Source: an uncultured Gammaproteobacteria bacterium (lineage in GTDB: Bacteria; Patescibacteriota; Microgenomatia; UBA8517). From it: a DNA stretch of 64,000 bases. Location of the stretch: contig CAZRGC010000002.1 in assembly GCA_964599625.1 (NCBI GenBank), positions 7,883-71,882 of the forward strand, written 5' to 3'. Under the pieces are notes generated by a model, which had not been told where the DNA came from, searched no databases, and was given only the letters and a program-made list of their open reading frames with translations. Positions 33,742 through 64,000 of the stretch are shown piece after piece (the stretch's first letter is position 1; each line of letters starts with the position of its first letter). The translations under genes and the position numbers were made by a program.

Positions 33742-34176
33742 ATGGCAGTCAAAAAACACAAAAAAATATCAGTACTCGTTGTAGAGGATGATAAAAATAT
33801 TGCAATTGCATATGAAATGAAATTTGCCAGAGTGGGTTTTAATGCGAAAATTGCAAATAGCGGGAGAGCAGCTTTTGAAGCATTAAAGAGTTTTAGTCCC
33901 GATGTGATAGTTTTAGATCTTATTATGCCGGTTATTGATGGATTCGAGGTTTTGAGGCAACTTAAAAATCATCCCCATCACAAAAAAATTCCAGTAATTG
34001 TTGCTTCAAATCTGGGCGGAGAAACAGATATAAATGAAGCTTATGAATTGGGGGCTGCAGAGTATATTGTCAAAACAAAATCAACGCTTGAAGATTTAGT
34101 ATCCAAAGTGAATCAGCTTGCAGAACAATATCAGGAAACAACAGTGTCTTCAATCAAAGTGACAGTTGCTGAATAG
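33742..34176 (+). CDS. single-domain response regulator (REC only, RR1)
   Basis: VLVVEDDKN ... DVIVLDLIMPVIDG ... receiver fold, no output domain; 3' end overlaps G2 convergently by 46 nt. Confidence 0.8.
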   Translation: MAVKKHKKISVLVVEDDKNIAIAYEMKFARVGFNAKIANSGRAAFEALKSFSPDVIVLDLIMPVIDGFEVLRQLKNHPHHKKIPVIVASNLGGETDINEAYELGAAEYIVKTKSTLEDLVSKVNQLAEQYQETTVSSIKVTVAE

Positions 34177-41500: not shown

Positions 41501-42017
41501 CTCTGATATAGTAGGCAGAAACGGAGTTGACAGTGGTTGAAGCCCAATTTGTTGGCATTGTATATGTCACTGCAACCGGAATAGTAACTGCCGCCTTGAA
41601 ACCTGTAGTTCCATCGGAAACCCCGGATAGGGCAGTCCAGCTTCCTCCGTTCCAATATTCCCAGGTTATTGTCCACGTACCTGCTCCTTGTGTACTAAAT
41701 TGAAACCATGCAGCAGTAAATGGAGTAGAACCACCTACATAAAAAGCATCATTAACTGCCGGAGCTACTGGGATAAAAAAGGTGTCTGCTGTTGTAGTGT
41801 TATTTGATTCTGTGGTGTAGTTCGTAAAAGCACCACCGTCGTCGTATTGGGCTGATGTATTTGGGTCAAGTCCAGTCCAAGCCTGAGTAGTTCCCGTGTC
41901 TGCAGACATTACAGCAATCAAAAGATCTCCCTGTTCGTAAGCTGGAATCGGAACCTCCAGATGTCGTAGTGATGTTGTTGTGTTGTAAGCTTGGGAAAAG
42001 TCTCGAATTGCGGGCAT
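38541..42017 (-). CDS. giant beta-helix surface protein paralog G3
   Basis: 1158 aa; N-domain (GDLLIAVMSAD); WEYWNGGSWTALSGVSDGTTGF module shared with G0; C-terminal module with an extra ~50-aa insertion (TVTAGSFVTSVKYRIVSVGSTDF ...) before YIRVRKSSPGETKYVP. Confidence 0.7.
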   Translation of the reverse strand: MPAIRDFSQAYNTTTSLRHLEVPIPAYEQGDLLIAVMSADTGTTQAWTGLDPNTSAQYDDGGAFTNYTTESNNTTTADTFFIPVAPAVNDAFYVGGSTPFTAAWFQFSTQGAGTWTITWEYWNGGSWTALSGVSDGTTGFKAAVTIPVAVTYTMPTNWASTTVNSVSAYYIRGRVSAFTSITTRPVGTQVFLQSGWQQLFSSSNTSNLAVLYKTATASEVDTTFTYSIAETANGSIISVRDVDPWCDTKTYNAVQIDVVASSGTFTRTTGDFLTDGFTAGMAIKTTGFTNGGNNTYKIIQSVTSTVITVTDTSGLVNETGNGNERVTNWLFGNTTGFAVSTTSSAKANLPTMSTDVNNCLVMWGAANSTAGVPSIIEGACQLIFGKDGSAHSDACSWGWQATAGTTATVGYSTISAAATRLAVWAIRSKGVGTPVIPGYTASDSSVYVTPYTGAAYNGDSATTNTITTPFTGTINGKTLATGGTTVTTADYGLNSYHAMSRCSGIATAGSWAGTRTTIVARTTLASKNILFHVNPLVPVEIQTTDSVALTGTIGVAIGLASTTSNFKVWHVAGAGTSWGTQFHQPVVINTDATDGVIQTTGSLNTGSITEIGFMISGKNVSPDWNGGSVWAMDTCVISGGSSAEPLNIIGTVGAYATGHERRSAISQGTSQMLVLGPIQFGDGGTSPIYLGLDATAIEFPRKYNKAQKEVYYNSIDNFAGITYYPGASDVISHTNSVVSSPSRYKWGLHASASTSATYDFSGLSVIGAGTVTLNKAITVTGLTVNDYSTLDVSGLTYDYGYILNMPSTNDSVTTSSTTVISNTDITTTTVTAGNRWASVATADLDMFSGCNFIGSTTSGHAVRLTSTGTVSFSGNSFTGYGPAARSFNASTGVNTGTDVITLDAAHGYNNGEPAYFQDQGGTAPTGLTDGNLYYVRSESSTTITLYDTSDHAIAGGATGRADITATGSGTQYIYSAAAAIYNNSGGAVTINVTNGGSTPSIRNSDGSSTTVNNAVNLTITVLDKADNGPINLAQVAVYKTSDDSQIMNEDTETVTAGSFVTSVKYRIVSVGSTDFTAIGAASNTIGVIFTATGAGSGTGTATNGVAVESFNYITDTPIYIRVRKSSPGETKYVPTSTTGTITNAGFSVTISLDEDTNA

Positions 42018-47546: not shown

Positions 47547-49535
47547 TTACGGAGTTGCGGGAGGATTGGAATCTTCCGGTAATACGATCGGAGGCTTTAC
47601 AGCTGAAGGCGCAACTGTGGGAGGAGGAGTCAGGTTGTCAGATCCTTCTGCGGTTTTTGCTGCTGGTTTGTTCTTTTGAATTTGTTCAACTGCGGCTTTG
47701 GCAATTTTTTCGTCTTCTGAACCTGGTTGAACAAGACTTAGTACTTTATTCATTTCTGTCAGGGCCTTGTCAAAGTCTTTCTTTTGGTTGTAAGCAAGGG
47801 CCAAGTTGTAATGAGCGTTGGCAAGATCGGGTTTTGCTGTTACTGCAAGTCCAAAAGCGTTTATGGCGTCGTCATACTTGCCAAGGGCGTAATAGACTCC
47901 GCCAAGGGCAATACGAAGGTTGGGTGAGATTGGGTCCAATGCAATAGCTTGATTAAAACTTACAATTGTAAAGTTGTCTGCACCTTGGGCGAATGGAATG
48001 ATGGATTGATAAGTTCTGGCTAAAAGTTCCCAATTTGCAGACCGTTGGGGATTAAGCGCTACTGTTGCCTTGGCTTCGGCAATGGCTTGTTGAACAAGCT
48101 GCGCAATGGTGCTTTTGTCTTGATCTGTTATGTCTTTCTTGCTTGCAAGACCCCTTGCCAAGGCAAGATCTAATTGATCAAAAGTTGCATGATATCGATC
48201 AACTTTATCATTTGAAGCAATTGCCGCTCTAAGCTCATCGTATGCAGTTTTGGCGTTGTTGGCCAATATGGCATCAATTGCTTTTTTGTAATGTAGCTCG
48301 CCCTTTATAACTTTGACTCCGACAACCATGGGGTAGACAGAAAATCCGAGAATTACAACAGATACCACAATAGCAGGTAGTTTGGAAGCAAATTCACCGC
48401 CGTCTTTTACAGATGTTGCTGAAAGATTCATAGTCAGCTCATTGTCTTTTGTGTTAAGGGCTGCAATCAGGAAGAAAGCCACAATAACAACAATGTTTGC
48501 AGGCAGTGTAAGAAGCCCGACCACCATAAGCACCAGAGAAAGCGAATATCCAGCCTCAAGTTTCAAATTGCCACTCGTAAGGTTTCTTAGATTTTTGACG
48601 ACTCCTTTTATCATTGTAAAAATTGCCAATACAAAAGCTGCTAACCCTAAAAATCCAACCTCTGTTACCAAGGTAAGTACGAAACTACTGGCAGAAAAGA
48701 ATCTATTTGCCCAAAGATCTGTAGAGTTGTAGGACAAAGGAAGATATTTAGTGAAGGCACTAAGATAGTTTGCAGGACCAGCTCCCAAAAGCGGACTGGC
48801 CTTAAGAGTGTCAATCGCTACAGACCAGCTAGTTTGTGTATCAACAACAACCGGAGTGCCGGGTTTACCTGGAAGCATCTGGTAAACCGAAAGCAGCGAG
48901 GACAATAAAACAACACCCGATGCAAGGAAAAAGAATATTTTTCTGAACTTATCTTTTTCTGAAAATGCAGCAGAGATTCCAAGTGGCAAAACAGAAAAAA
49001 GAAACATAACTTCAGGAAGTTTGCCGCCAACTGCAGAGAAATTGGCATCTCTTATTACAGCCGGAAGTTGGGGAATGCTGGCCAAAAGTCCTGTGAATGC
49101 GAATATTGATATCAATGCCACCAAAAGTGACGAAAGAAACAAACCTAACGCAAAATTTTCTCTATCACCTTTAAAAGCGATTTTTGCAAAAAAGTAAGCC
49201 AGAAAACCGCCCGCTATTATTGTTGCCGTGCCGGGAATTGCAAAAGCTTCCATCTTGTTGGGTGTTTTTGTGATAGCAGAAGCAATGTATGCAACAACCA
49301 ACAAAAGAAGTGGCATGTCAGACGAAGAAACATTAAGAGTTATTTTGCCCTCGGTGATAATTTTGACTGACCAGACCGCAAGAATGAGAAACAGAACAAA
49401 AACCAAAAGAAGCACTTTTGGCAAATCAAAATAGCTTGCAAAGTTTGTCAGAAGGAAAGAAGGAAAAAGAACGACAAACGTGAGTATGGAAGTTTTTAAC
49501 ACCTGATTTAGAAGCCTGCTCATATCGGAATACAT
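47547..49535 (-). CDS. polytopic membrane protein, O-antigen ligase/polymerase-like, with C-terminal TPR repeats
   Basis: About 12 TM helices; TPR repeats (ALGGVYYALGKYDDAINAFGLAVTAKPDLANAHYNLALAYNQKKDFDKA); the Wzy_C assignment is inference. Confidence 0.5.
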   Translation of the reverse strand: MYSDMSRLLNQVLKTSILTFVVLFPSFLLTNFASYFDLPKVLLLVFVLFLILAVWSVKIITEGKITLNVSSSDMPLLLLVVAYIASAITKTPNKMEAFAIPGTATIIAGGFLAYFFAKIAFKGDRENFALGLFLSSLLVALISIFAFTGLLASIPQLPAVIRDANFSAVGGKLPEVMFLFSVLPLGISAAFSEKDKFRKIFFFLASGVVLLSSLLSVYQMLPGKPGTPVVVDTQTSWSVAIDTLKASPLLGAGPANYLSAFTKYLPLSYNSTDLWANRFFSASSFVLTLVTEVGFLGLAAFVLAIFTMIKGVVKNLRNLTSGNLKLEAGYSLSLVLMVVGLLTLPANIVVIVAFFLIAALNTKDNELTMNLSATSVKDGGEFASKLPAIVVSVVILGFSVYPMVVGVKVIKGELHYKKAIDAILANNAKTAYDELRAAIASNDKVDRYHATFDQLDLALARGLASKKDITDQDKSTIAQLVQQAIAEAKATVALNPQRSANWELLARTYQSIIPFAQGADNFTIVSFNQAIALDPISPNLRIALGGVYYALGKYDDAINAFGLAVTAKPDLANAHYNLALAYNQKKDFDKALTEMNKVLSLVQPGSEDEKIAKAAVEQIQKNKPAAKTAEGSDNLTPPPTVAPSAVKPPIVLPEDSNPPATP

Positions 49536-49574: not shown

Positions 49575-50003
49575 TTACTTAAACAAACCTGAAAACAATA
49601 CCATATTTACGAAGATAAGAATATTGATCGTTATGGCTATAAGGCACCAAGAACAATAAGTTTTAATCACTTTTGCTTGAAGGTAAAAAAGATATCCGCT
49701 AAACAAAGTTGCAAAAAGACCTGCAATCATCGGAAAGTAAAGAATATAGTCCGGGAGTTTGTAAATATATTCTGCAATAGAATACAAAGCAATTCCCAAA
49801 TAATATGCCAAACCGTAAAGCTCATTTTTTATTCCAAAGTGACTACCATAATCCGATCCAACAACCTTTGTGCAGTCTTCTCCAAGAATGCAAAACATTT
49901 TTTGACCCGTGGCGGCATATCTTTTGTATTGCCAGTGAAGAAAGTAGGCATTCACAAAACCCAATATTGACAGTATCAAAAGTGTGAACATGTTCTTCAA
50001 CAT
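49575..50003 (-). CDS. VKOR family thiol-disulfide oxidoreductase
   Basis: Loop Cys pair FCILGEDCTKVVGSDYGSHFGIKNELYGLAYY and TM CxxC TYCSWCL. Confidence 0.65.
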   Translation of the reverse strand: MLKNMFTLLILSILGFVNAYFLHWQYKRYAATGQKMFCILGEDCTKVVGSDYGSHFGIKNELYGLAYYLGIALYSIAEYIYKLPDYILYFPMIAGLFATLFSGYLFYLQAKVIKTYCSWCLIAITINILIFVNMVLFSGLFK

Positions 50004-50024: not shown

Positions 50025-50453
50025 ATGACATACGTAAAGTTAAAATTGTTGGTAGTTTTTTTTGTTTTGTCTGTTCTTCTGGGAGGTCTTTGGGCTGACC
50101 ACTATCCACACCATGATTTTTATCCCTTTTTTTCCTGGAGTTTGTTTTCCAATAGTTCCAACAGTGACACCTCATATTTTATTAAACTAAAGACTTATGG
50201 CGGAGTGGCGGATAACACAGTATTGTATGCTGATAATGTTTCAAAATATGTGGAGGGTTATTTTTTGCCAGACTTTTATTGGGACGTTCAGGAGTTTGCG
50301 GTGAATCCACAGATTCAGAAAAAGATTGAAAGTTCGTTTGCCAAAAAGCCGGTGGATTACTATCTGATAAAAGCGGATTATGACGCGGTTGTTTTAAGGA
50401 CAACCGGTAATTTAATAGATACTCAAGTAGTTTCGGAACACACAGTAAAATGA
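50025..50453 (+). CDS. secreted or membrane-anchored hypothetical protein
   Basis: 142 aa, N-terminal hydrophobic segment. Confidence 0.4.
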   Translation: MTYVKLKLLVVFFVLSVLLGGLWADHYPHHDFYPFFSWSLFSNSSNSDTSYFIKLKTYGGVADNTVLYADNVSKYVEGYFLPDFYWDVQEFAVNPQIQKKIESSFAKKPVDYYLIKADYDAVVLRTTGNLIDTQVVSEHTVK

Positions 50454-51400
50454 AAAAAATATTTAGTTTGGATTTTATAGAAACAACGGCGAGGCAAAAA
50501 TCTTCTGTTATGAAGGCAGTCAACGCTGTTGCAACTTTCTACTTTTTTCAGATTGCTTTGGCGTTTATCAACTTGATGAAAATTGGTGCGGTGGACCCTG
50601 AGCGAAGCGGATTTTTGCCGATTTGGCCCATGAGCTGGGCGGGAAGTCTATCTTACTCATTCACTGCACAGATATTGGCTGTTTTGTATGCAGCTTCCGC
50701 ATTTGCGGCTGTGTTTTTTTGGCGAAAATGGTTTGTCAGACTTCTAGTTTTTTTGGCTTTCTGGCAAGTGCATGCACTGGACAGTTCTTTTGGCTATATT
50801 AACCATTTTTATTATTTGATTTTTTATGCATTGTTCATTTTTATTTTTCTTCCCGACACAAAAGAAGACACCGACCTGGATCATGATCAAGCCAAAAAAT
50901 TTTTGTTAGTATTTTGGGGGGTGATCGCAGCCGTGTTTGTGACATACACACTTTCTGGTTTTTGGAAAATATATTGGGGAATATTGGCCCAACTTGACGG
51001 GCGGCTGAGTTCTTTTTCTATGATGGCCTTTCCAGAGCACGTTGCCCGTAAAACAATTTTTGAGAGCAGGGAATATTTTTACAGCAATTTGGTAATTTCA
51101 AATCCCATTCTGGCATGGATTTCTTATCTGGGAACTATATATGTGGAATTTGCGGCTTTGTGGGTAGCGTTTAAACCTAATCTGCATAAGGTGTGGGCAT
51201 TTGTGTTCCTTTTTATGCATGTAGGAATTCTTTTGGTGATAGGAATACCGTTTTTTGAGTCAATTGCCGTTTTGTGTTTAATAGTTCTAAATTCGCCCTT
51301 TTCCGGAAAGGTAAATTTGGTGGAAATATTTTCGGATCTGCCGTTTTTTGGATTTGTATTCAAGAAGATATTTAAAATTGTCTTTCGCCACACTTTTTAA
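50450..51400 (+). CDS. polytopic membrane protein (possible HTTM-like; unverified)
   Basis: 316 aa, 8 or more TM; ATGA overlap with the upstream gene; adjacent to VKOR. Confidence 0.5.
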   Translation: MKKIFSLDFIETTARQKSSVMKAVNAVATFYFFQIALAFINLMKIGAVDPERSGFLPIWPMSWAGSLSYSFTAQILAVLYAASAFAAVFFWRKWFVRLLVFLAFWQVHALDSSFGYINHFYYLIFYALFIFIFLPDTKEDTDLDHDQAKKFLLVFWGVIAAVFVTYTLSGFWKIYWGILAQLDGRLSSFSMMAFPEHVARKTIFESREYFYSNLVISNPILAWISYLGTIYVEFAALWVAFKPNLHKVWAFVFLFMHVGILLVIGIPFFESIAVLCLIVLNSPFSGKVNLVEIFSDLPFFGFVFKKIFKIVFRHTF

Positions 51401-52228: not shown

Positions 52229-52687
52229 ATGCAACTTACTCTTTTTGTAAGACCGGTATTGATGTTTGCTGTCACTTTTTTGATTTTTTTTGCACTGTTA
52301 ACTTCTATACCGTTCAACTATCTTGGTGTTTCCGACCAACCAAAAGGAACTGCAATAAGACTCAACTATCTGCGATTGTCTAAAAATGCCTTTGTTGTTG
52401 TGCAAACACTTGATCCAAGGACAAACCTTCCAGATAAGGGGGGTTACTTGAACAATCCTTCGCTTATGCCTAGAGGAATTTACAAGAATATTGACTTATT
52501 TCTTGCAAACTCAATGGAAAATGTTCCTGATAAAGTTGCGGTTACAATCTACGAGGACACAAACTCAAATGATGAATTCGATCAATATTACGACTCGGGC
52601 GATGATTCAATCGTGGTTGTTTCCGATAGTCCGCTTTTCTCCAAGATCAACGGTAAAATATTTAGAAAGATAATAACTTTAAAATGA
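52229..52687 (+). CDS. membrane-anchored hypothetical protein
   Basis: 152 aa; ATGA overlap with A-1. Confidence 0.4.
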   Translation: MQLTLFVRPVLMFAVTFLIFFALLTSIPFNYLGVSDQPKGTAIRLNYLRLSKNAFVVVQTLDPRTNLPDKGGYLNNPSLMPRGIYKNIDLFLANSMENVPDKVAVTIYEDTNSNDEFDQYYDSGDDSIVVVSDSPLFSKINGKIFRKIITLK

Positions 52688-53910
52688 AGTTTGTTAAAAA
52701 GATAAACCGAAAAATACTCATCTTGTCTTTTTTGATTGCATTGCCTGTTGTCTATTATTTTTTGTGGGCCCCTTATCGTGGCCAGGAATCAACCAGTCCG
52801 CTCAGAAACAAAGTCTTATCTGTTATCAAAAATTGCAAGAAAGAAGGAAACACGCTTAATTCAATGGACCAAAAATGCGTGTACAAAGCTTTCCACAATT
52901 TTGTTAACAGAGACAATGTGTCTCAGGTTGTTGCTGTGCTTATGGATATTTTTTCTAAGGCAGACAACTCCAGAGACCTGGGTACAAACAATTGTCACAT
53001 CCCCGCACACATCGCAGGCGAGATTGCATATCAGGACGGAGCTGACCTCAACGAGTTGTGGGATAAGTGTTCCAATAATTGCACTTTTGGCTGCTTGCAT
53101 GGAGGTTTTCAGGGACTTTTCAAAGAACAGGGATCTGCACTTTTGGACAACCTTGAGACAGCGTGCCATGTCTTGGAAGATCCAAATGATGCAGACCTTA
53201 GATCGTGTTGGCATATTGTGGGTCATGGATTAGCGGAATATTACGGAGCAGATATGAACTCCGCTATCAATAAATGCATGGGCTTACCCAACGAAAAGCA
53301 GCAAAGACATTGCATTATGGGTGTAAGAATGGAGTTTATTGTTGCCTCGGTTGACAACACAAGCCCAATGAAGCCTTTGAAGGATTATGAATACCTGGAC
53401 TTTTGTAAAAAATTTCCCTCAAAGTTTATAGAGGATTGTTATGCAGAAGCCGCCTATTATCAGATCAGAATAACTGATGATGTGAACCAAATGGTTGACA
53501 TATGCAAACTTGCTCCCAATATAGGGGATTCCAAAATAAGATGCGTTACAGGGTCCGGTTCTGTGTTTTTCTTTACCAATAAAGCCAACGCAGATGTTAT
53601 ACATAACTTTTGTGCAAGATACGGCGACAAGCATTATTCGAATGAATGTGCAATTGGGTCAGTTGACCTTGCTTCATCTGAGTGGGACCACTTGGAGACA
53701 GGGACCCAAGTATGCCTTCTTGCAAGCAAGGATTTTGTTGGGGAGTGCCTTGCGTTTTATGGAGGTAGGGTTCAGTTTTATAATGGGATGGCCAAGAGAA
53801 AAGAAATTTGCGGTATGCTTTCGCCGCAAGACAACAAAAGGTGTATGGGCAAACCCACAATGAAAAGAGACTATCTTATCCCTGTGACATTCGAAACTTG
53901 GGAAAGATAA
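52684..53910 (+). CDS. secreted Cys/His-rich repeat protein, family A paralog 1
   Basis: N-terminal TM anchor; motifs NCHIPAHIAGEIAY, CSNNCTFGCLHGGFQG, CWHIVGHGLAEYYG; more than 25 Cys. Confidence 0.65.
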   Translation: MKFVKKINRKILILSFLIALPVVYYFLWAPYRGQESTSPLRNKVLSVIKNCKKEGNTLNSMDQKCVYKAFHNFVNRDNVSQVVAVLMDIFSKADNSRDLGTNNCHIPAHIAGEIAYQDGADLNELWDKCSNNCTFGCLHGGFQGLFKEQGSALLDNLETACHVLEDPNDADLRSCWHIVGHGLAEYYGADMNSAINKCMGLPNEKQQRHCIMGVRMEFIVASVDNTSPMKPLKDYEYLDFCKKFPSKFIEDCYAEAAYYQIRITDDVNQMVDICKLAPNIGDSKIRCVTGSGSVFFFTNKANADVIHNFCARYGDKHYSNECAIGSVDLASSEWDHLETGTQVCLLASKDFVGECLAFYGGRVQFYNGMAKRKEICGMLSPQDNKRCMGKPTMKRDYLIPVTFETWER

Positions 53911-54067
53911 CCCCCGGTAGTTTACTCAGATGGTTTTTTTTTGACACCCAGACCTCTCGGTTTGACTTGTTCTAATCGGACAACTTAATCTACAAAAAGA
54001 GGCAATTTATGACTGAGGCAAAATTATGAAATTGAGGCGGTATAATGGATTGCTTTTAAATCAGAAG

Positions 54068-55174
54068 TTAAATCTTTTCGTTGTGTACCAAAACACCGTC
54101 GGCAAAATATGCGTGATATGGACCAGGAAGGGAAATGTTGTACACGGTATTGGTGCCGTCAACATGTTCTATCGAGCTTACGGTATATGCGTTTCCGTCT
54201 GAATTCAAAAGTGTATCACCAATACTTAAAGACTCAGCAGTTATCCAGGCATTTCTGCTCGGGGACCACATAAGATGGTTACCTGTAACTTTAATTGTAC
54301 CGTTTATATTAAGGTAGCCGCCCTGGACGTCTTTGTGCACCAGAAGCTTGCTTACAACTTGAGGAAATGTTCTTCTGTTGGCCAAATCGTAAGAGAGAAT
54401 TATGTCCCCAGTTTTAATGTCTTCAATTGACTTTGTGGAACCATCAGCAAGTGCTACTTGTGTACCGGGGAGGAAACAGCTTGAGTAGTACAGTTGAGAA
54501 TAGGAATATGCCGCATATGATGATTGACCATAACCATAATATGTGCCTTGACTGTAGCTATAGTAAATTCCTTGGCCATAGCCATAGTATGATGATTGAG
54601 AATAGCCATAGTAGGCACTTTGAGCATAAGCGTAATAAGTAGATTGTGAATATGAATAGCAAGTATTTGTAAGTGAGAACGACGACGGTCCGCAATCAAC
54701 TGTTGAATATGAGTCAAAAAGACCAAGTCTTCTGTAGCCCGAGGCTGTGGCCGTTCTAAAATTAGTCAATGTAAAATTATCAGCCCAACCGTCGGCGTCT
54801 GTATCCTGAAGATAAATGGGTGTTCCAGATTTAATTGCTCCTCCGGCTTGCACGGCAATGCTCCCGGCTCCCACAGTGAGAGAGCCCACTGCCAGTGTGC
54901 CTGTGTTATTGATTGTTATATTGCCACCAGTGGTAAGACTTAGTTGAGCAGTGTTTGTTGTAGATGCATCGGTAGCACCATTATCCACACCTTCAACAGT
55001 ACTTGCTGAAATAGAACAGGCGGTGGCCCAATTCAGAACATTTTTTGTTGAGGCGGTCATAGAAGAGTAGAAATTGCATGCGGCGCTAGCAGATTTTGCG
55101 GAAGCCAAAAGGAGTATTCCGGAGATCGCAAAACTTATAACTATTTTGAGCGTGTTATTTTGTGTCTTTTGCAT
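54068..55174 (-). CDS. secreted protein with Tyr-rich octapeptide repeats and C-terminal Hint (bacterial intein-like) domain
   Basis: Signal peptide; (S/G)xYY(G/A)Y(S/G)Q x6; Hint domain begins SCFLPGTQVALADG and ends GVLVHN (Cys1 ... His-Asn). Confidence 0.65.
   Translation of the reverse strand: MQKTQNNTLKIVISFAISGILLLASAKSASAACNFYSSMTASTKNVLNWATACSISASTVEGVDNGATDASTTNTAQLSLTTGGNITINNTGTLAVGSLTVGAGSIAVQAGGAIKSGTPIYLQDTDADGWADNFTLTNFRTATASGYRRLGLFDSYSTVDCGPSSFSLTNTCYSYSQSTYYAYAQSAYYGYSQSSYYGYGQGIYYSYSQGTYYGYGQSSYAAYSYSQLYYSSCFLPGTQVALADGSTKSIEDIKTGDIILSYDLANRRTFPQVVSKLLVHKDVQGGYLNINGTIKVTGNHLMWSPSRNAWITAESLSIGDTLLNSDGNAYTVSSIEHVDGTNTVYNISLPGPYHAYFADGVLVHNEKI
54482..54658. repeat. 24-bp tandem coding repeat (x6-7) encoding Tyr-rich octapeptides
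   Basis: Repeated ccatagtatgatgattgagaatag-like units within 54068..55174. Confidence 0.6.
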
Positions 55175-55185
55175 CTATTTTGTTT

Positions 55186-55761
55186 TTAAGATCTTGGCGC
55201 AACAGTCACACTAGAAGATTTTCCATTAGAAGCTTTAGCTGTAAGTGTAAGAATATATTTGTAATCGACAGTGTCTTGCAAAGTTACAGAACCGGACCAC
55301 ATACCATCTGTGGCACTGCCCGAACTTTGGGTAAAGCTCACATCAACATTTCCGTGATCTGTGGTTAAGGTTCCCGTAAGAGTTGAAATTGCGGATGTAA
55401 AAGAAGCTTTGACTGTAAGGTTGAGTGTCTGTCCTTTCTTGGCATCAAGTGGGTCGAAAATTACCTGGGTAATTGTTGGGCCGTCGTGTGCACCCATACC
55501 AACTTGGTAAGTTCCTTTGGCACCATTATCAGGTATAAGAGGAATGGGTGTCGGAGTGGGTGTTGCCTTTGGTTTTGGTGTAGGAGATTTGGCTATCTCA
55601 ATTTTCCCAATTTCCTTGGGAATGTCTGTATTGACGACAGGTTCTTGAATTGATGGGGTAATGCTTTTCCAAACAAAATAAAAAGCAACGGCAAGAACTA
55701 CAGCAACAAACAAAAGTATAACTACCACCGACATTCCTTTATTGTTTGTTATCTTTTTCAC
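55186..55761 (-). CDS. TM-anchored protein with Pro/Thr/Lys linker and beta-rich domain (hypothetical)
   Basis: 191 aa; TPKPKATPTPTPIP linker. Confidence 0.5.
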   Translation of the reverse strand: MKKITNNKGMSVVVILLFVAVVLAVAFYFVWKSITPSIQEPVVNTDIPKEIGKIEIAKSPTPKPKATPTPTPIPLIPDNGAKGTYQVGMGAHDGPTITQVIFDPLDAKKGQTLNLTVKASFTSAISTLTGTLTTDHGNVDVSFTQSSGSATDGMWSGSVTLQDTVDYKYILTLTAKASNGKSSSVTVAPRS

Positions 55762-55888
55762 TTTGTTACAGGCAAAATGTTAATAATAATAATGAATTCT
55801 GGCTGAAAATTTGTCAAGTGGCATGGTGTTGATTGATAAAAACACAGCAATTTAAATATGTTATATTCAAAATTACGAATGTATAAAG

Positions 55889-57103
55889 TTGACGATGTAT
55901 AAAAAATTGTTTGTAAACATCTTGTTTGTGTTGGCTTCCGCACTGTTAATTTTTGGTGGAATAGTCGGGACCTCGGGCAGAATATTTTATCCAGAGCTTA
56001 ACTATTTTAAAAATAAAAACCTTGATTTTTCTGAGCTGCAAAAATATTTCAAAGAAGTTGCCAACAAAAAGGGAGCACTTTATGCGTTCAGCCTTCTTAA
56101 AATTGCAGATTTACCGTCAAATACCGATATACATTTGCTCGGGCACACCGTTGGTGACATTCTTTATAAACAAATGGGTGTGGATGGTATTCACTTTTGT
56201 AGTCAGGATTTTAGAAATTCATGTTCGCATTCCATTGTAATAGGCCTTTTTGTCGAAAAAGGGTTGGGAGCGCTTTCCGAAATTGCAGATGTCTGTAGGA
56301 GTGCACCCGGCGGATCAGGGGCATATGGAATGTGTTTTCATGGCCTCGGTCATGGAATATTGGCATATACGGGTTATGATATGGAAAAAGCTACAGAGCT
56401 TTGCGAAAAGACAGGAACTAAAGAAATGGGTTTTGTCGAAACCGCAGAGTGTGTTGGCGGTGTTGTGATGGAGATGACCGCCGGAGTCCACGATAAAGAT
56501 GCATGGATAAGGCAGAAAGACAAGTACCTCAAAATGGACAGCCCGCTTATGCCTTGCACAGAGAGTTTTATACCTGAAGTATCCAGGCCAAACTGTTTTC
56601 TTTATATAACCCCACACCTATGGGAAGTAGCTGGTGGCGATTTAGGTAATCCAACCGAAGATGTCTTTTCCCGGTCTTTTGCATATTGTGACAAGATGCC
56701 GGCGGGAATGAGTGTTTACAAAGCACTTTGCTATGGCGGTTTCGGAAAAGAGTTTGTGGGGCTTGCGCAGTCTAGAGACATTAGGGATATAGGTTCTATG
56801 AGCGACGCTGGACTGCAAAAAGTGTACAGGTGGTGCAAACTTGCACCAAATAAAAATGCAGTAAAATCCTGCCTGGATCAGGCAATAAATTCGTTGTACT
56901 GGGGTGGTGAAAACAAAACAGACGCTGTAATTAAGTTCTGTAGCTTTACAGACTCCAACGATAAGGAATCATGCTACAAACATGTAATCGGATCTTTCAG
57001 GTTTTATCAGAAAAATAATCTGCAAAACCTGAATGACAGTTGTGCCAAGTTGCCGGAACCATATTCATTTAAATGTTTGGACCCTGAGTTTGTCGAAGAT
57101 TGA
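55889..57103 (+). CDS. Cys/His-rich repeat protein, family A paralog 2
   Basis: LLGHTVGDILY, CSHSIVIGLF, CFHGLGHGILAY. Confidence 0.65.
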   Translation: MTMYKKLFVNILFVLASALLIFGGIVGTSGRIFYPELNYFKNKNLDFSELQKYFKEVANKKGALYAFSLLKIADLPSNTDIHLLGHTVGDILYKQMGVDGIHFCSQDFRNSCSHSIVIGLFVEKGLGALSEIADVCRSAPGGSGAYGMCFHGLGHGILAYTGYDMEKATELCEKTGTKEMGFVETAECVGGVVMEMTAGVHDKDAWIRQKDKYLKMDSPLMPCTESFIPEVSRPNCFLYITPHLWEVAGGDLGNPTEDVFSRSFAYCDKMPAGMSVYKALCYGGFGKEFVGLAQSRDIRDIGSMSDAGLQKVYRWCKLAPNKNAVKSCLDQAINSLYWGGENKTDAVIKFCSFTDSNDKESCYKHVIGSFRFYQKNNLQNLNDSCAKLPEPYSFKCLDPEFVED

Positions 57104-57105
57104 TA

Positions 57106-58278
57106 ATGAAAGTTAAAGTTTTATCCTTATTGATTGCAACGATTTTGGTTTGGTTTTTTTGGAATAATGACAGATTGCACCCAAACCTTAATTTAGGTAT
57201 ACAAAAATGCAAATCCGAAAAAAACCAAATTTGTTACAAGGATCTGATAATAAAGGTTTTTAATAAAACCGGGTTGGATGCGTCTTTGGACCTTGTAGAA
57301 AAAATCTATTCCATCGATTCTTCGTTTTCTTCTGTTTGTCACGATGTGGGTCATGTACTGGGGGCAGAAACTTATAAATTGTTTAAGTCGGGTAAAAATT
57401 TCAAAGTTACACCCAAAGTGGCATTTTGTTCATATGGGTTTTATCACGGATTTATGGAATATCTTGCGGCAGAAGGTGATGTTGAAAAAGCCAGAGATTT
57501 TTGCAGATACGTTGACGCTCAGGTGGCCAAAGTAACCCCTGATGCATCGCTTCAATGCTATCACGGTATTGGCCACGGATGGGTGAATATTCATGGAGAC
57601 AAAACACTTTTGGGTGACGATGTGGGAATAGTAAAAAAAGGTCTTTCACTTTGTGAAAAGGTTGCATCAAATGAGTCTGAATTAAGCAGATGTGCAACTG
57701 GGGTTTTTAATGGTATCGCTATTTTCTACGAGTCGGGTGAATATGACCTCCAAATCAAAAAAGACGATCCTATGTGGATTTGCAAAAGGGTTGATAAAAA
57801 ATTCGAAGATGCGTGTTATGTAAGTATGAATACAGTTTTGTTTGCAGTTACTGGGCAGGACTTTGCAAAATCAGCAAAGTACATTGAAGGAATAAAGGAC
57901 GATATGGTTGCATCCCATGCCATGATAAATTTGTCACTTCCTTTTAGTTTGGCGGAAATGGACAAGGTTGATCATTCTCGAAGCATTGCTGTATGCAGAG
58001 GTTTACAACCCAGGTTGACGGTCCCATGTTTGCAGGGTTTTGCCTTTGCGTACATGGAGCATGGTGAACCAGGGAAAGAATATCTTAAGGCAACCGGTTT
58101 TTGCAAAGATAATGGTTTGACTCCGGCAGAAGAAAAGGGTTGTTTGGGATACATTTATGGTTACATGGCACAGTGGTATCCTGCCGACAAGGCGTATGCA
58201 ATTTGCAAGGACGAAGGTGACTACTCCACATATTGTTCACAAAAGGTAGAAGAGGGTTTGGAAGGACTAGGAAAATGA
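57106..58278 (+). CDS. Cys/His-rich repeat protein, family A paralog 3
   Basis: ATG 3 nt after the A-2 stop (the ORF track starts at TTG 57100); CHDVGHVLG, CSYGFYHGFM, CYHGIGHGWVN. Confidence 0.65.
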   Translation: MKVKVLSLLIATILVWFFWNNDRLHPNLNLGIQKCKSEKNQICYKDLIIKVFNKTGLDASLDLVEKIYSIDSSFSSVCHDVGHVLGAETYKLFKSGKNFKVTPKVAFCSYGFYHGFMEYLAAEGDVEKARDFCRYVDAQVAKVTPDASLQCYHGIGHGWVNIHGDKTLLGDDVGIVKKGLSLCEKVASNESELSRCATGVFNGIAIFYESGEYDLQIKKDDPMWICKRVDKKFEDACYVSMNTVLFAVTGQDFAKSAKYIEGIKDDMVASHAMINLSLPFSLAEMDKVDHSRSIAVCRGLQPRLTVPCLQGFAFAYMEHGEPGKEYLKATGFCKDNGLTPAEEKGCLGYIYGYMAQWYPADKAYAICKDEGDYSTYCSQKVEEGLEGLGK

Positions 58279-59435
58279 AAAAGCTATATATTGCCGTCGG
58301 TTTAATTGTGTTCTCCTTTGTAATGTTTGTTGGCGATTTTCCGGTTCCAAAACCTTCTTTGGATAAGGTGGCTTTCTCAGTTATAACACTTTGTTCAGGC
58401 TCAAGCTTCAAACCAACTTGTTACGAAGAAGAAATACCAAAACTTATGGACCACCTTTCTATGGAGGATACGTTCGCCGTTACAGAATTAATACAAAGCC
58501 AGGTTACCGACTTTCCATATTGTCATGTTTTGGGGCATAAAGTCGCAAGTCTTGAGACAAAAAAAGATCCATCAAAATGGAAGAGTGTTATGGCAAGATG
58601 CCCCAGGGGAACTTGCTCCAATGGTTGTGTGCACGGAGCGTTCCAGGAAAGATATAAGTACGAAAACCTAAGTGCTCAGGACCTGTTGGCCGCCAAAAAA
58701 GACTTTGAGACTGTTTGCGAAAAAAGTGACTCTTTCGACCCTACAGGACTTGAGCAAGGAAGCTGTTACCATGCACTGGGCCATTTGATGATGTATTTAA
58801 CAAATGCTGACATAGAAGCTTCAGTTGATGCTTGCGACGAGGTTGCCAAAAAATCCGACGGGCGGGACTTTACAAATGTCTGTTATGCAGGCGCCTTTAT
58901 GCAGATTTTTCAGCCTTTGGATACTGACGATTTGGCGCTAGTCAAAAAGTTTGTGATAAGTCAGGATAATGCCTGGGGTTTTTGTTCAGGTTTTCCCGAT
59001 AAAAAAAGAAACTCTTGCTGGGAAGAATCTTGGCCACTCTTTCTTGAAAAAATTAGCATAGGGCGCGGGTTAATTGATTTTTGTTCGAAGTTGGGTAGTG
59101 GGGCGCAAAAGTGTACTAGAGACCTTTTATACATTATGCCAATTCAGTTCAGATTCAACCTTAATGCCATATCTAACTACTGTGCTAACTTACCAGGGGA
59201 TTACAGAGGAATGTGTTTTGCCATGACCGCCTCCAGAATTTTGGAGATTGACAGGAGAAACGGCGAGAAAGCTGTAAGTTTTTGTGTATCACTGGAGTCC
59301 AAAGATAAAGATGTCTGTTTGAATCAGGTTATAAAAGATGCGGAATTTGATTTCAACAAAAGTTCCCCGGAATATATCGGAATTTGTACAATTATGCCCG
59401 AACCCTGGAAAGGAAAATGTTTAAGATATGAATAA
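58275..59435 (+). CDS. Cys/His-rich repeat protein, family A paralog 4
   Basis: ATGA overlap with A-3; start MKKLYIAVGLIVF; CHVLGHKVAS, CSNGCVHGAFQ, CYHALGHLMMY. Confidence 0.65.
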   Translation: MKKLYIAVGLIVFSFVMFVGDFPVPKPSLDKVAFSVITLCSGSSFKPTCYEEEIPKLMDHLSMEDTFAVTELIQSQVTDFPYCHVLGHKVASLETKKDPSKWKSVMARCPRGTCSNGCVHGAFQERYKYENLSAQDLLAAKKDFETVCEKSDSFDPTGLEQGSCYHALGHLMMYLTNADIEASVDACDEVAKKSDGRDFTNVCYAGAFMQIFQPLDTDDLALVKKFVISQDNAWGFCSGFPDKKRNSCWEESWPLFLEKISIGRGLIDFCSKLGSGAQKCTRDLLYIMPIQFRFNLNAISNYCANLPGDYRGMCFAMTASRILEIDRRNGEKAVSFCVSLESKDKDVCLNQVIKDAEFDFNKSSPEYIGICTIMPEPWKGKCLRYE

Positions 59436-60921
59436 ATTAAACATTTTTTTGATTGTTTTGTTGGCCTTACTAATATTTACAGTCCCAAAACATATCCCCA
59501 AAAACCATACTATTGTTTATGACGATAAGGGATACTCTCCGTCAGAGATTACTATAAATAAGAACGATAAGGTAACATTTGCTGGCAAAAGCCAGCATGT
59601 TTTTTGGCCCGCCTCAAATCCGCACCCAAACCACACTAACTTTCCTGATTTTGATTCCAAAAAAGGGATAAAACCTCCTGAGACGTGGAGTTTTACATTC
59701 AGAAAAGCAGGTGTGGTTACTTATCATGATCATCTAGACCCTGCATACAGGGGGAAAATAAGCGTTAAGGAGACAAATGTATTTTTTTGGTTGTATGCAA
59801 AGACTGCCGATTTTTTAAGACTTAATTTTTCGAAGCACAATGATAAATATTTAGAAAATGTTGCAAAGCTTTGTACAGGAAACGAATGGGAAGATAGAAA
59901 AAATCTTATAGATTGCTGGAGTAAATACTTCTCCGGTTTGGAAAAAGACTTCGGTCCAAAAGAGGCATTGTCAGTTCTAAATACTCTTACCGGAAAAGGG
60001 AAAATTTCGTTATCTGATTGCCATAACTATGCGGACCAAATTGGATCAGATGCTTACTGGAGTGAGGTTTCTGGTAGAAAATTCAAAATAGATAAAAGTT
60101 TTGGAATTTGCAGCCATGGCTTCTTTCATGGCTATATGTTGGAGCATGTGAGTCATGGTCAGGATTTTGAAGCGTCTTTCAAACTATGCGACGAGACCTC
60201 CGGGTTAAGCGAATCAATGGCAAGGGAGTGCTATGTTGGTGCGGGTAATGGTCTTATGTATTACTACTGGAGTAACTTGGGGAATGATTTGCTTAAAATA
60301 GTTCAAAACTCAAAACTTATTTGCGCCAAGACTGGCGACAACAAAGACAACTGTATTTACGGGATTTATGGAGGAATGGAGCATCTATATCTCAAAATCC
60401 ATGGCTCAGATTTCTCAGTGAACCAAACCGACCCTTTTTTTGTTTGTATACGGGAAAGTGAAAATAAATATAAACCCTATTGTTACGAAAAGACTGTCAG
60501 ACCTCTCTTTTCTGATTTGGGATTCGATGTTGTAAAGATTGCATCTTGGATTTCAAAAATTGGAGATTTTGAAATAATGAAGGCCGAAGCAAAAAATATT
60601 GGCAACTTTGTGAGTCAGTTTTGGATCTATAAGTCGCAAGAGGACCTTTTAATGTCTATTGGGAAGTGCAAGGTTTTTACCGGGATCTTGTACAACTCTT
60701 GCGTTGAAGGTGTTTTTGAGGGTATTTTTTCAAATCTTCTTGCCTCCCAAAAAATAAGTGATTTTGATTGTGAGATGGATAGACTGACTGCAGTTGACAA
60801 ACAAATTTGCAAATCAAAGAAAATTGAATCTGAAAATTCAGTAAAAACTGATCTATTGCAAACCCAAAAACACCATTTTGTTTTGAGTTGGGTATACAAA
60901 AATATTATGACTTTTGTGTGA
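59428..60921 (+). CDS. TM-anchored cupredoxin-like domain plus Cys/His-rich repeat protein, family B paralog 1
   Basis: 8-nt overlap with A-4 (tATGAATAAAt); FWPASNPHPNHTNF ... YHDHLDPAYRGKISV; then DCHNYADQIG, ICSHGFFHGY, ECYVGAGNGLMYYYW. Confidence 0.7.
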   Translation: MNKLNIFLIVLLALLIFTVPKHIPKNHTIVYDDKGYSPSEITINKNDKVTFAGKSQHVFWPASNPHPNHTNFPDFDSKKGIKPPETWSFTFRKAGVVTYHDHLDPAYRGKISVKETNVFFWLYAKTADFLRLNFSKHNDKYLENVAKLCTGNEWEDRKNLIDCWSKYFSGLEKDFGPKEALSVLNTLTGKGKISLSDCHNYADQIGSDAYWSEVSGRKFKIDKSFGICSHGFFHGYMLEHVSHGQDFEASFKLCDETSGLSESMARECYVGAGNGLMYYYWSNLGNDLLKIVQNSKLICAKTGDNKDNCIYGIYGGMEHLYLKIHGSDFSVNQTDPFFVCIRESENKYKPYCYEKTVRPLFSDLGFDVVKIASWISKIGDFEIMKAEAKNIGNFVSQFWIYKSQEDLLMSIGKCKVFTGILYNSCVEGVFEGIFSNLLASQKISDFDCEMDRLTAVDKQICKSKKIESENSVKTDLLQTQKHHFVLSWVYKNIMTFV

Positions 60922-62362
60922 CGATGACCATATGAAGCGATTAATAAATAAAGTTATTTTAATAGTTGTTTTGCTTTTGGGTTTTGGGTTTTTATATCTA
61001 AACTTCATGACTGTAAGTGTAAAACTTACCAGCTCGGGGTTTGTGCCAATCTATACAACAATCCTCAGAGGACAGAGTGTTACTTTTTCTTCAGACATCA
61101 ATAAAACTTTTTGGCCGGCGAGCGACCCTCACCCTAACCATACAAATTTTTCTGCCTTTGACCCAAAAAAGGGAATAACACCCGGAGAAAGTTGGAAATT
61201 TAAGTTCGATAACTCCGGCACTTTTCAATACCATGATCATTTGGACCCGAGGTTTAGGGGGGTAATTACGGTTCTGGAAACCAACCCGCTCAGTTATTTT
61301 GCTAATACCTTAGCAAAAATTTATAAATCAAAATTTATCAAACTGGATGAAAATTACGCTAAAGATAAAATTAATTTGTGTAGCAAAAAACCAGGACGTG
61401 TTTACTACATGGAGTGTTGGTCTAATGTTTTTTCCGAACTAGTGAGGGACTGGGGTGCCGGCGATGCAATGAGGGTTTTGTCTGTGGTTAACAAAAACGC
61501 AAAAATGACGGTTGGCGACTGCCATCTGATTGCTGACCAAATCGGTACGGACGCATACTGGCAGTATATTTCAGGGAAGAAGTTTGATGAAGAGGTTGAC
61601 TTCTCACTTTGCGATTATGGCTTCTTTCATCATTTTATGTCTGAACATGTGAGTCATGGACAGAACTTCAAAGGGTCGGAGGAGTTTTGTAAATCATTAA
61701 AGGAAGGCCTTGTAGCCCAATGTTATCTCGGGATGGGTAATGGACTCTCATATTATTTTTGGAACTTGTTTCCAACAGACGCGGACAAGATAGTTAAAAA
61801 TTCACTGGAGGTGTGCGAAAAACTTTCGCAAAATAAAGATGAGTGTGTCTTTGGAGTTTATAGCGGTATTGACCATATTTATGAAGGTCAACACGGGTCG
61901 GAGTTGACAATTAACCTTTCTGATCCATTCTCGTTTTGCAGAAAACAAAAAAACGTTATTTATCAAAAATCTTGCTATGAAAGAATGGTTCCTTCTATGG
62001 CATATGCATTAAACAACGACGTAAGCGAGAGTGCGGGATATTTGGTTGGGAAAATATCAAAAATGCCACTATACGCACAGAAAGAGGCTTTGAGGCGTTT
62101 GGGAATTATGTTGTCGGAAGAAGAAGCTGTTAAGGAAAATTCAGACATTGTAAAGCCAATAGCTATTTGCAGGCGATTTTTTAACAAAATAAGGAATGAA
62201 TGCGAATGGGGTGTATTTTATAATATATTTGAAAACTCAAAACTGCCGTCAGATAAGTTTTACAGTGTTGATTGCGAGACTTTTGACCTGTCAAATAAGA
62301 TTGAATTAGAAAATTGCACTAATGCAGGAATTTCGGCATTTGGTAAACCTATAAATGAATAA
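60914..62362 (+). CDS. family B paralog 2
   Basis: FWPASDPHPNHTNF ... YHDHLDPRFRGVITV; DCHLIADQIG, CDYGFFHHFM, CYLGMGNGLSYYFW; true start may be ATG 60932. Confidence 0.7.
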   Translation: MCDDDHMKRLINKVILIVVLLLGFGFLYLNFMTVSVKLTSSGFVPIYTTILRGQSVTFSSDINKTFWPASDPHPNHTNFSAFDPKKGITPGESWKFKFDNSGTFQYHDHLDPRFRGVITVLETNPLSYFANTLAKIYKSKFIKLDENYAKDKINLCSKKPGRVYYMECWSNVFSELVRDWGAGDAMRVLSVVNKNAKMTVGDCHLIADQIGTDAYWQYISGKKFDEEVDFSLCDYGFFHHFMSEHVSHGQNFKGSEEFCKSLKEGLVAQCYLGMGNGLSYYFWNLFPTDADKIVKNSLEVCEKLSQNKDECVFGVYSGIDHIYEGQHGSELTINLSDPFSFCRKQKNVIYQKSCYERMVPSMAYALNNDVSESAGYLVGKISKMPLYAQKEALRRLGIMLSEEEAVKENSDIVKPIAICRRFFNKIRNECEWGVFYNIFENSKLPSDKFYSVDCETFDLSNKIELENCTNAGISAFGKPINE

Positions 62363-63632
62363 ATACAAAAAAATAGTGTTTGTTTTAGTTTTTTTTGCAT
62401 TATCTTTGGGCACTATAGTTGTATACCAGCATCTAAATAAAAGCAGAACCGCAAAAGATTTTGAAATTGTTTACACAAGTGATGGTTTTGTCCCACAAGA
62501 CATAGTGATAACAAAAGGAGACCGAGTAATATTTAAAAATAACTCCGACCGTCCCTTTTGGCCAGCAAGTGATCCTCATCCGCTGCATTCAATTTACCCA
62601 CAGTTTGATCCCAAGCGCCCAATAGAATCGGGTGAAAGTTGGGCTTTCATTTTTCCCAAAACTGGTGAATGGAAATTTCATGACCATTTGTTTCCTGTGA
62701 ACAGAGGCCTTGTAAATGTTTTAGACCCTAAAGATGTCAAAGATCCTGCAACGGCCCTTAAAAGAGATGAAGTGGAAAAACTTATCGAAAAAAAAGGAGT
62801 GGAAAATGCGTATAAGCATCTAAAAACTATTTATGATCCTGCAACCGCCGCCGCGCATTCCACTTTTCATTTGTTTGGTGAGGTCTTATATCAAAAATTT
62901 TCAGTAAATGGTATTGAATATTGTGACGGCTTTGCAGGTTTTGGGTGTTATCACGGACATTTTATAAAGGCGGTAGCTGAAAAGGGTGTGGAGATTGCAA
63001 TTGAGCTGGATAAGGTTTGTTTGGCCAAGTTTGGTGAAAAAGGTTTGGGTTGTCCACATGGGATAGGCCATGGTCTTTTGGAATATTTTGGGCACGGAAA
63101 AATAACTGAAGCACTTGAGATATGCAAAAAGCTTACTTGGAAAGGGCCCTTGTTTGGTTGTTCCGGCGGTGTGTTTATGGAAAACAACTTTCCCACAGTT
63201 TTTGAAAAAGATGGAGCAAGAAGAGTATCAACCAGAGAAGCTCACGGAAATCTGTTTCAACCTTGCATAGATGCGCCAGTTGGCTATAAACAAGCATGTT
63301 ATTTTGAACAAGCTTCTTGGTGGAACGATGTTTTGAAACGTGATTCCCAAAAAATCGGAAACTTTTGCAACTCGCTTAAAGACCAGAGTGAGAACGAGAG
63401 TTGTTTATTGGGCGCAGGAAATTCAATTGCAGAGATTTCAGAATATAATGCCAACGAAGTTGCTCAGTATTGCAAGTCTGTCCCGGGTAACAAATCGATA
63501 GCGCTGTGTAGAGCCGGTGCTGCTTGGGCTTTTTTTGCTAATCCTGCAAAGAGAGAAATCTCAAAAACATTGTGCCAGGGTTTGGGTAATTTCGAGGATT
63601 TGTGTTTGTCTAAGATGATGATTGTAAAATAG
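62355..63632 (+). CDS. family B paralog 3
   Basis: Same junction tATGAATAAAt; FWPASDPHPLHSIY ... FHDHLFPVNRGLVNV; CYHGHF, CPHGIGHGLLEY. Confidence 0.7.
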   Translation: MNKYKKIVFVLVFFALSLGTIVVYQHLNKSRTAKDFEIVYTSDGFVPQDIVITKGDRVIFKNNSDRPFWPASDPHPLHSIYPQFDPKRPIESGESWAFIFPKTGEWKFHDHLFPVNRGLVNVLDPKDVKDPATALKRDEVEKLIEKKGVENAYKHLKTIYDPATAAAHSTFHLFGEVLYQKFSVNGIEYCDGFAGFGCYHGHFIKAVAEKGVEIAIELDKVCLAKFGEKGLGCPHGIGHGLLEYFGHGKITEALEICKKLTWKGPLFGCSGGVFMENNFPTVFEKDGARRVSTREAHGNLFQPCIDAPVGYKQACYFEQASWWNDVLKRDSQKIGNFCNSLKDQSENESCLLGAGNSIAEISEYNANEVAQYCKSVPGNKSIALCRAGAAWAFFANPAKREISKTLCQGLGNFEDLCLSKMMIVK

Positions 63633-63633
63633 A

Positions 63634-64000
63634 ATGGCGATATCCTCCAAATATTCTTTTAAGTTGATTGCTGCTGTTTTGGTTATCTCGGCAGTCTTTG
63701 TTTTGTATAGAAAAGCTCCTGAAAACACAAGTGTTCAATATAATAAGGAAGGGTTTAGCCCCAAAATAGTTACGATAAACAAAGGAGATGTGGTTACATT
63801 TATAAATAGTTCCGGACTTTCGTTTTGGCCCGCAAGCGATCTTCATCCGTCACATCTTGTTTACCCCGAATTTGATAGCAAAAGCGCACTGCCTTCAGGA
63901 CAAAGTTGGTCATTTGAGTTTAACAAAATTGGAAAATGGGCGTTTCATGATCATCTGGATCCAACAAAAATTGGAACAGTTGTTGTTAAAGGGTTTCCGG
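63634..64000 (+). CDS. family B paralog 4 (5' part; runs off the window end)
   Basis: MAISSKYSFKLIAAVLVISAVFVLY TM; FWPASDLHPSHLVY ... FHDHLDPTKIGTVVVKG. Confidence 0.65.
   Translation, partial: MAISSKYSFKLIAAVLVISAVFVLYRKAPENTSVQYNKEGFSPKIVTINKGDVVTFINSSGLSFWPASDLHPSHLVYPEFDSKSALPSGQSWSFEFNKIGKWAFHDHLDPTKIGTVVVKGFP

Follow-up and report, generated by a model that had tools for sequence, protein, structure and literature searches.

Among described systems, those of copper-dependent ferrous iron uptake, FtrABCD/P19-Ftr1 and EfeUOB, come closest to the subject of this report: they combine a Cu/Fe-binding periplasmic beta-sandwich (P19/FtrA) with a cupredoxin devoid of cysteine (FtrB, or the Cup domain of EfeO, covered by PF13473), which in EfeO is joined to an all-helical metal-binding domain, and they have an Ftr1/EfeU permease. 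The Cys-less FtrB works with P19 (FtrA-P19) in iron uptake (PMC11966278). Another group is that of the N-terminal histidine brace chaperones CrdA, CopC, and YcnI, the last of which relies on a His at its N terminus and an anchor at its C terminus (PMC12154828). Further cupredoxins are those of blue copper proteins, multicopper oxidases, and NirK. On the helical side, the Hcp proteins (HcpA/B/C, Sel1-like) are secreted proteins built of alpha/alpha hairpin repeats, with consecutive helices linked by a closing disulfide. Here, we describe a gene array in a stretch of 64,000 nucleotides of a Patescibacteriota contig (CAZRGC010000002.1, positions 7,883 to 71,882; the whole stretch is called the window), whose plus strand holds, from position 52684 to the end, eight open reading frames (ORFs) of one family, A1 to A4 and B1 to B4, the last one cut by the window end (Table 1).

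The family and the system are new, with no entry in Pfam or NCBIfam. For their function we tentatively propose, at somewhat less than an even chance, a system outside the cytoplasm that handles a metal, probably copper or iron, and is based on disulfide-stapled solenoids with a ladder of histidines. The cupredoxin with four His and a third partner gene of these arrays echo FtrA-P19/FtrB and YcnI. FtrB is no nearer to the array cupredoxin than amicyanin is, the helical domain resembles the M75/imelysin domain of EfeO (HxxE) in neither sequence nor fold, and five paralog classes are found where Ftr/Efe systems have single components. The Hcp proteins share the type of closure that is proposed for the array proteins but have no equivalent of the His ladder; the array repeats vary in length (32 to 44 amino acids), and Sel1 (PF08238) gave no match at E ≤ 1 in any window paralog.

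Patescibacteria account for much of bacterial diversity and have genomes of about 1 Mb, in which most lineage-specific surface proteins are of unknown role. The array may occupy 1 to 3% of such a genome, an estimate that compares about 24 kb for the closest relative with roughly 1 Mb.

A histidine ladder in an undescribed helical family

The sequence-only reading, made earlier on this DNA, could place the Cys/His-rich domain in no known family, and the searches agreed. No window paralog had a Pfam or NCBIfam match over this domain, a profile of seven paralogs matched none of the PDB sequences, and the comparison with solved structures returned no similar fold. We also found no description of the family in the literature on Patescibacteria. 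The helical domain is an undescribed family, and its fold, as modeled, appears to be absent among solved structures. The AlphaFold model of A3 (pLDDT 93.4, pTM 0.88) contains 22 helices. Profile comparison revealed internal repeats, with R2 matching R7 at 96% probability (E 6e−9) and R3 at 80%.

A3 retains the full set of conserved polar residues on successive helices (H81, H85, H116, E120, H155, H159, and N204, numbered from the TTG at 57100), the histidines of which look functional. The ladder residues occupy positions +2, +6, and +10 from the repeat Cys, with glycines at +3 and +7 beside them (GxxxG type). Each of the five histidines is present in 124 to 127 of the 128 aligned proteins and E120 in 115, and within each major class (a to e, defined below) the histidines are 95 to 100% conserved. 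In class d (A2), the His of repeat 2 is shifted four residues earlier, to column 112 instead of 116. Position 204 is Met in classes b, c, and d (79 to 100%) and Asn in classes a and e; in class b (A4), the five histidines and Met204 are all 100% conserved. Besides E120 and N204, R197, D148, D223, and several tyrosines are near invariant. Since equivalent positions of neighboring solenoid repeats adjoin, the ladder histidines would be close together in space and could hold one or two metal ions. B1, B2, and B4 look derived: H85 is replaced by Asp or Glu (Asp in B1), H155 and H159 are lost, and a His is gained at alignment position 208, which suggests that the site was remodeled or changed its ligand preference. 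Three Cys/His motif types had been written down from the sequence. As literal patterns they match some paralogs only, while their Cys, His, and Gly are true alignment columns, and the Cys and His columns are conserved over hundreds of orthologs.

Conservation reaches at least 91% in each of 16 Cys columns, and the rare losses are paired (C37/C45, C80/C110, C335/C348, and C369/C379). Of 369 family ORFs, 367 have an even number of cysteines outside the anchor (P = 1e−106); A4, of class b, has about 20. CxxC motifs are absent from the window paralogs. Even counts, paired losses, and the lack of CxxC argue for structural disulfides and, taken with the secondary structure, fit bonds that would join each helix B to the following helix A. 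Cysteine content is 2.8 to 5.2% in the family ORFs and 1.4% in the other long ORFs of the window.

All the proteins from A1 to B4 have one N-terminal hydrophobic anchor, as had been claimed for family A, and most have Lys or Arg residues before it, so that the bulk of each protein should lie outside the membrane. The family is predicted to be extracytoplasmic, which supports the location given by the sequence-only reading. With this predicted location and their paired cysteines, the proteins would show the general traits of disulfide-bonded secreted proteins. Much as suggested at the outset, a disulfide-dependent and possibly metal-dependent function is still the best reading, except that Cys and His do not form a single metal motif: it is the histidines, not the cysteines, that look like the functional site.

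Spread, classes, and age of the family

A word-indexed search with A3 returned 331 relatives, almost all without a Pfam domain; the few with a named source came from Gottesmanbacteria, Kaiserbacteria, Colwellbacteria, and Portnoybacteria, all of them Patescibacteria. The exhaustive profile search, which covered 1.84 billion representatives, gave 6,656 clusters (at 50% identity) at E ≤ 1e−3 and 1,337 at E ≤ 1e−30. The largest chains hold up to eight copies of the helical domain. One giant member of 3,580 amino acids, on an 831-kb contig (a size typical of Patescibacteria), has a GH3 domain at its end, and fusions of the family domain to GH3, FG-GAP, and esterase or alpha/beta hydrolase domains exist. 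Among the 41 other long members scanned, cupredoxin was the only additional Pfam domain (10 of the 41). The assignment of domains of giant multicopy proteins to operon classes by a Rosetta-stone approach was abandoned, since at identities of 21 to 35% the labels carry little meaning; only three two-class fusions were clear (P0127, P0128, and P0132).

When one genome per species was scanned, 72 loci were obtained, and their titles name Patescibacteria lineages almost throughout. The same type of array is widespread in other genomes of Patescibacteria (the Candidate Phyla Radiation [CPR]). Many array contigs (L003, L006 to L011, L024, L036, L038, and others) bear the title “uncultured Gammaproteobacteria,” “Candidatus Saccharibacteria,” or “Verrucomicrobiia”; since the genes on them agree with Patescibacteria arrays, these titles are doubtful. 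The loci, of at most 21 kb, hold 1 to 13 family genes, nearly all on the same strand and abutting. The contig of the closest relative (two loci, syntenic) has 18 family genes in about 24 kb.

Average linkage on the domain alignment, used in place of single linkage, which had chained all the paralogs together, gave five main classes. Class a (A3 in the window) is the commonest, with 102 ORFs in 71 loci. Class b (A4; 83 ORFs in 60 loci) is never fused to a cupredoxin, whereas class e (35 ORFs in 33 loci, no window member) is fused to one in 97% of cases. Class c (B3; 49 ORFs in 37 loci) has about 349 amino acids as a rule and usually lacks the cupredoxin outside the window. Class d (A2) is present in a single copy, usually the first of the array (44 ORFs in 44 loci). 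The recurring gene order is d-c-(c)-e-a-b, and that of the window is “.dabffc.”; the classes of A1, B1/B2, and B4 were found only in the window's lineage.

The window genes, judged from their sequences, are ancient paralogs. Their pairwise protein identity is 20 to 43% overall (21 to 28% among A1 to A4, 40% between B1 and B2, 30% between B1 and B4), and B3 has only the cupredoxin in common with the other B proteins. Orthologs are 40 to 57% identical over distant lineages and paralogs about 22%, indicating that the paralog classes are older than the divergence of the sampled lineages. A recent segmental duplication, deduced earlier from an identical gene junction, was rejected: besides the low protein identity, the best DNA repeat between array genes is one 70-nucleotide stretch at 76%, with no other, and the shared junction 10-mer ATGAATAAAT also arose two or more times in 4 of 100 shuffled sequences. 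The proposed split into a subfamily A and a cupredoxin-bearing subfamily B is likewise not phylogenetic, as A3 is nearest to B4, B2, and B1 and the C-terminal domain of B3 clusters with the short class without cupredoxin.

Cupredoxin modules, the third partner, and possible functions

The N-terminal module of B1 to B4 had been called cupredoxin-like, correctly: it scores 18.7 to 26.2 bits against PF13473, below the cutoff of 27, relatives reach E 1e−18, and a profile of 26 modules matches amicyanin at E 9e−7 and a NirK domain at E 1.4e−7. By sequence homology, it belongs to the cupredoxin superfamily and is a true homolog of the blue copper and NirK cupredoxins. The 154 modules counted, 123 of them fused to family genes and 31 encoded separately, come from 66 of the 72 loci. 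The type 1 blue copper ligand set (His-Cys-His-Met) is not kept in the module. Only its first His remains; Cys92 is aligned with Asp (Asp/Asn), the second His (His95) and Met98 are not conserved, and among 158 aligned module sequences Cys never accounts for more than 3% of a column. W-P-A-S, HPxH, an Asp, and two His flanking the Asp/Asn in place of Cys (H(D/N)H) are invariant, which gives four invariant His in all. HPxH and H(D/N)H are similar to the HxH motifs that multicopper oxidases carry, and a G-x-W-x-Y-H-x-H stretch resembles the laccase L2 motif. Still, the module differs from a multicopper oxidase in having one domain, two His motifs instead of four, and no Cys. The supplement of PMC6744442 has no cupredoxin entry.

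In 23 of the 72 loci, the last family gene is directly followed by a gene for a small anchored protein, the third partner, with a His that is invariant immediately after the signal peptide and is predicted to become N terminal. The protein is predicted to be a beta-sandwich with a CrdA/P19-like fold. It showed no match above noise to Pfam DUF1775, CopC, or YtkA, and copper binding would be by analogy with CrdA, CopC, and YcnI. Right after the third partner, at the array end, nine loci in all encode a PMT_2 (GT-C) glycosyltransferase-like membrane protein (L036 19140 to 20726 in the closest relative). This adjoining gene may point to glycosylation of the surface proteins.

The metal-handling system might work as follows. 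Each protein would face outward from one N-terminal membrane helix and consist of a solenoid of alpha-hairpin repeats, about 330 amino acids long and with seven to ten disulfides stapling helix B to the next helix A, to which a Cys-less cupredoxin may be added. The ladder of five His, with Met or Asn and Glu or Gln after them, would bind one or two ions of a transition metal, copper being the likeliest. The paralog classes, encoded in a long operon-like array, would act with the four-His cupredoxin and the third partner to take up, oxidize, or sequester copper and/or iron at the cell surface. Metal binding, the identity of the metal, and the direction of transfer are what we infer here; the anatomy, conservation, even-Cys rule, gene order, and partner genes are apparent in the sequences.

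Several points weigh against such a system. The window ORFs and the neighboring gene clusters scanned contain no permease of the Ftr1/EfeU or CopD type and no copper ATPase. The third partner lies outside the window, 2.4 kb beyond the array in the closest relative, and the proximity of the ladder histidines is a deduction from repeat positions. B1, B2, and B4 are without three of the five histidines, so that the same site cannot serve all copies. The GH3, FG-GAP, and esterase fusions speak for general surface roles. Finally, known copper or iron enzymes that would need a supply are few in many Patescibacteria. If the ladder does bind copper or iron, it would show how reduced, host-dependent cells obtain or use metals and would represent a new metal-binding architecture.

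The alternative that survives best, possible though rather unlikely, is a structural or adhesive surface coat, in which the stapled solenoids would be scaffolds or binding modules in contact with the host or the envelope and the histidines would serve fold stability or a nonmetal ligand. The helical repeat fold is typical of binding proteins, and the Hcp proteins of Helicobacter are likewise disulfide-stapled alpha/alpha repeats. The copy number of up to 18 in the window's lineage, the FG-GAP and GH3 fusions, and the surface and envelope genes nearby (LRR, SH3, PT-HINT, O-antigen-ligase-like plus TPR, and PMT_2 glycosyltransferase) also suit a coat. However, five polar residues invariant over classes that are about 22% identical would be unusual for a pure scaffold, orthologs 40 to 57% identical in a fixed order do not have a fast-evolving appearance, and the near-universal link to a four-His cupredoxin is left unexplained. 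Even if structural, the family would still be a testable target, with a soluble ectodomain, clear residues to mutate, and defined partner genes.

We regard it as improbable that the proteins are extracytoplasmic enzymes (active on glycans or peptidoglycan, or oxidases of host surface molecules) with catalytic His, Glu, Asn, and Tyr and class-specific substrates. The near-invariant acidic, Asn, Arg, and Tyr residues besides the histidines, the differences in ladder positions between classes, and the GH3 and alpha/beta hydrolase fusions are compatible with catalysis. Such fusions are rare, though, while 10 of the 41 other long proteins carry a cupredoxin and nothing else; the domain has no structural likeness to known alpha-helical hydrolases or lyases, and five glycine-flanked histidines are seen more typically where a metal or cofactor binds.

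The metal-handling reading also has a bolder form, to which we give slightly less credit than to the enzymes: the five classes, the four-His cupredoxin, and the beta-sandwich with its N-terminal His might be a new multisubunit copper machine of the Patescibacteria surface, with the His ladder and the cupredoxin HxH motifs forming mono- or multinuclear copper centers at domain interfaces. With such a machine, cells that lack a respiratory chain would have an oxidase outside the cell, or a means of copper/iron acquisition, on a previously unseen fold.

An electron conduit, with His pairs on adjacent helices ligating heme or another redox cofactor and the cupredoxin as electron partner, is very unlikely. 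It draws on the HxxxH pairs of neighboring helices with small residues around them and on the attached cupredoxin, CPR cupredoxins having been proposed as electron carriers (PMC5581439). Against it, the module lacks the type 1 Cys required for fast electron transfer, no CxxCH motif is present, and the invariant histidines are odd in number. To our knowledge, moreover, most Patescibacteria are without heme synthesis and respiratory chains.

A VKOR-linked thiol/quinone redox system, with the Cys-rich proteins as redox partners or dedicated VKOR substrates, is hardly credible: a real VKOR gene lies 2.7 kb upstream of the array and the proteins need many disulfides, but no more than 2 of the 72 loci, both of the closest relatives, have VKOR within 10 kb of the array, and this lack of conserved linkage largely refutes the system and led us to reject the association claimed from gene clustering, while the even Cys counts without CxxC speak for structural pairs and VKOR serves MdbA as a general housekeeping partner in Patescibacteria, which are enriched in an MdbA-like oxidoreductase plus VKOR as a general disulfide system (PMC6744442). 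A DsbA-like gene is present in six of the loci.

Array layout and neighboring genes

The sequence-only reading counted nine genes, of which eight lie in the window and the ninth begins just outside it. A public 12.5-kb contig (locus L001), identical to the window where both overlap, completes B4 and shows the ninth family gene starting 17 nucleotides ahead of the B4 stop; by synteny with the closest relative, this gene is predicted to be a further cupredoxin-fused member. Translational coupling of the whole array had been proposed from abutting and overlapping genes. ATGA stop/start overlaps are present at 52684 and 58275 and 8-nucleotide overlaps at 59428 and 62355, whereas the remaining junctions are gaps of 1 to 10 nucleotides or depend on the choice of start codon, and two minus-strand genes (54068 to 55761) break the array between A1 and A2.

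Table 1. Features of the array and of its surroundings in the window
Feature	Coordinates	Strand	Remarks
662-amino-acid protein	47547-49535	-	Weak Wzy_C O-antigen-ligase-like domain (E 0.002, below cutoff), clear C-terminal TPR
VKOR	49575-50003	-	Pfam PF07884, 81 bits
142-amino-acid anchored protein	50025-50453	+	Near arrays in 10 of 72 loci
316-amino-acid multipass membrane protein	50450-51400	+	12 of 72 loci; invariant K, H, H, W
Small secreted DUF7282-like protein	52229-52687	+	Pfam DUF7282, 29.4 bits (cutoff 27); stop overlaps A1 start (ATGA)
A1	52684-53910	+	Membrane anchor and helical His-ladder domain, 20 Cys; class restricted to the window's lineage
PT-HINT protein	54068-55174	-	Five 24-nucleotide tandem repeats at 54516-54647 coding Tyr/Ser/Gln-rich octapeptides
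Ig-like protein, 191 amino acids	55186-55761	-	Adjoins the PT-HINT gene
A2	55889-57103	+	Class d; single copy per locus, usually first in array; 44 loci with orthologs 40-57% identical
A3	57106-58278 (alternative TTG start 57100)	+	Class a, the commonest; protein modeled
A3 His-ladder part	57337-57711	+	Four successive repeat helices: C80-H81...H85, C110...H116...E120, C153...H155...H159, C198...N204
A4	58275-59435 (alternative start 58233)	+	Class b; 83 orthologs in 60 loci
B1	59428-60921	+	Anchor, Cys-less cupredoxin (~59506-59775), derived helical domain
B2	60932-62362 (alternative TTG start 60914)	+	Same architecture and derived His set as B1; 40% identical to B1
B3	62355-63632	+	Cupredoxin (~62460-62729) and class c helical domain with five His
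B4	63634-64000	+	Anchor and cupredoxin inside the window; whole protein 485 amino acids including helical domain

The genes for the 142- and 316-amino-acid proteins are translationally coupled and are found beside or inside arrays of distant lineages. Neither protein had a match in Pfam, PDB, or NCBIfam. A resemblance of the 316-amino-acid protein to HTTM or gamma-carboxylase was considered and dropped, as a profile of 13 of its homologs matched nothing in PDB or Pfam. The pair possibly encodes accessory components and is a better candidate for this role than VKOR. The DUF7282-like gene, with homologs near arrays in five to eight of the 72 loci, is another possible accessory. Relatives of the PT-HINT and Ig-like proteins are near arrays in 17 to 18 loci by BLAST clustering and in 8 and 10, respectively, by direct search with the window proteins; homologs of the 662-amino-acid protein are near arrays in 13 loci.

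A scan of the window for promoters and terminators was uninformative, with counts equal to or below the shuffled expectation. Elsewhere in the window, five ORFs of 767 to 1,158 amino acids (7352 to 10006, 26517 to 29462, 29722 to 32025, 34131 to 36479, and 38541 to 42017) have no Pfam match at E ≤ 1e−5; large proteins of this kind without a family are typical of Patescibacteria. Two paralogous dCache-HisKA-HATPase sensor histidine kinases are encoded 3 kb apart, at 32069 to 33697 on the plus strand and 36932 to 38590 on the minus strand.

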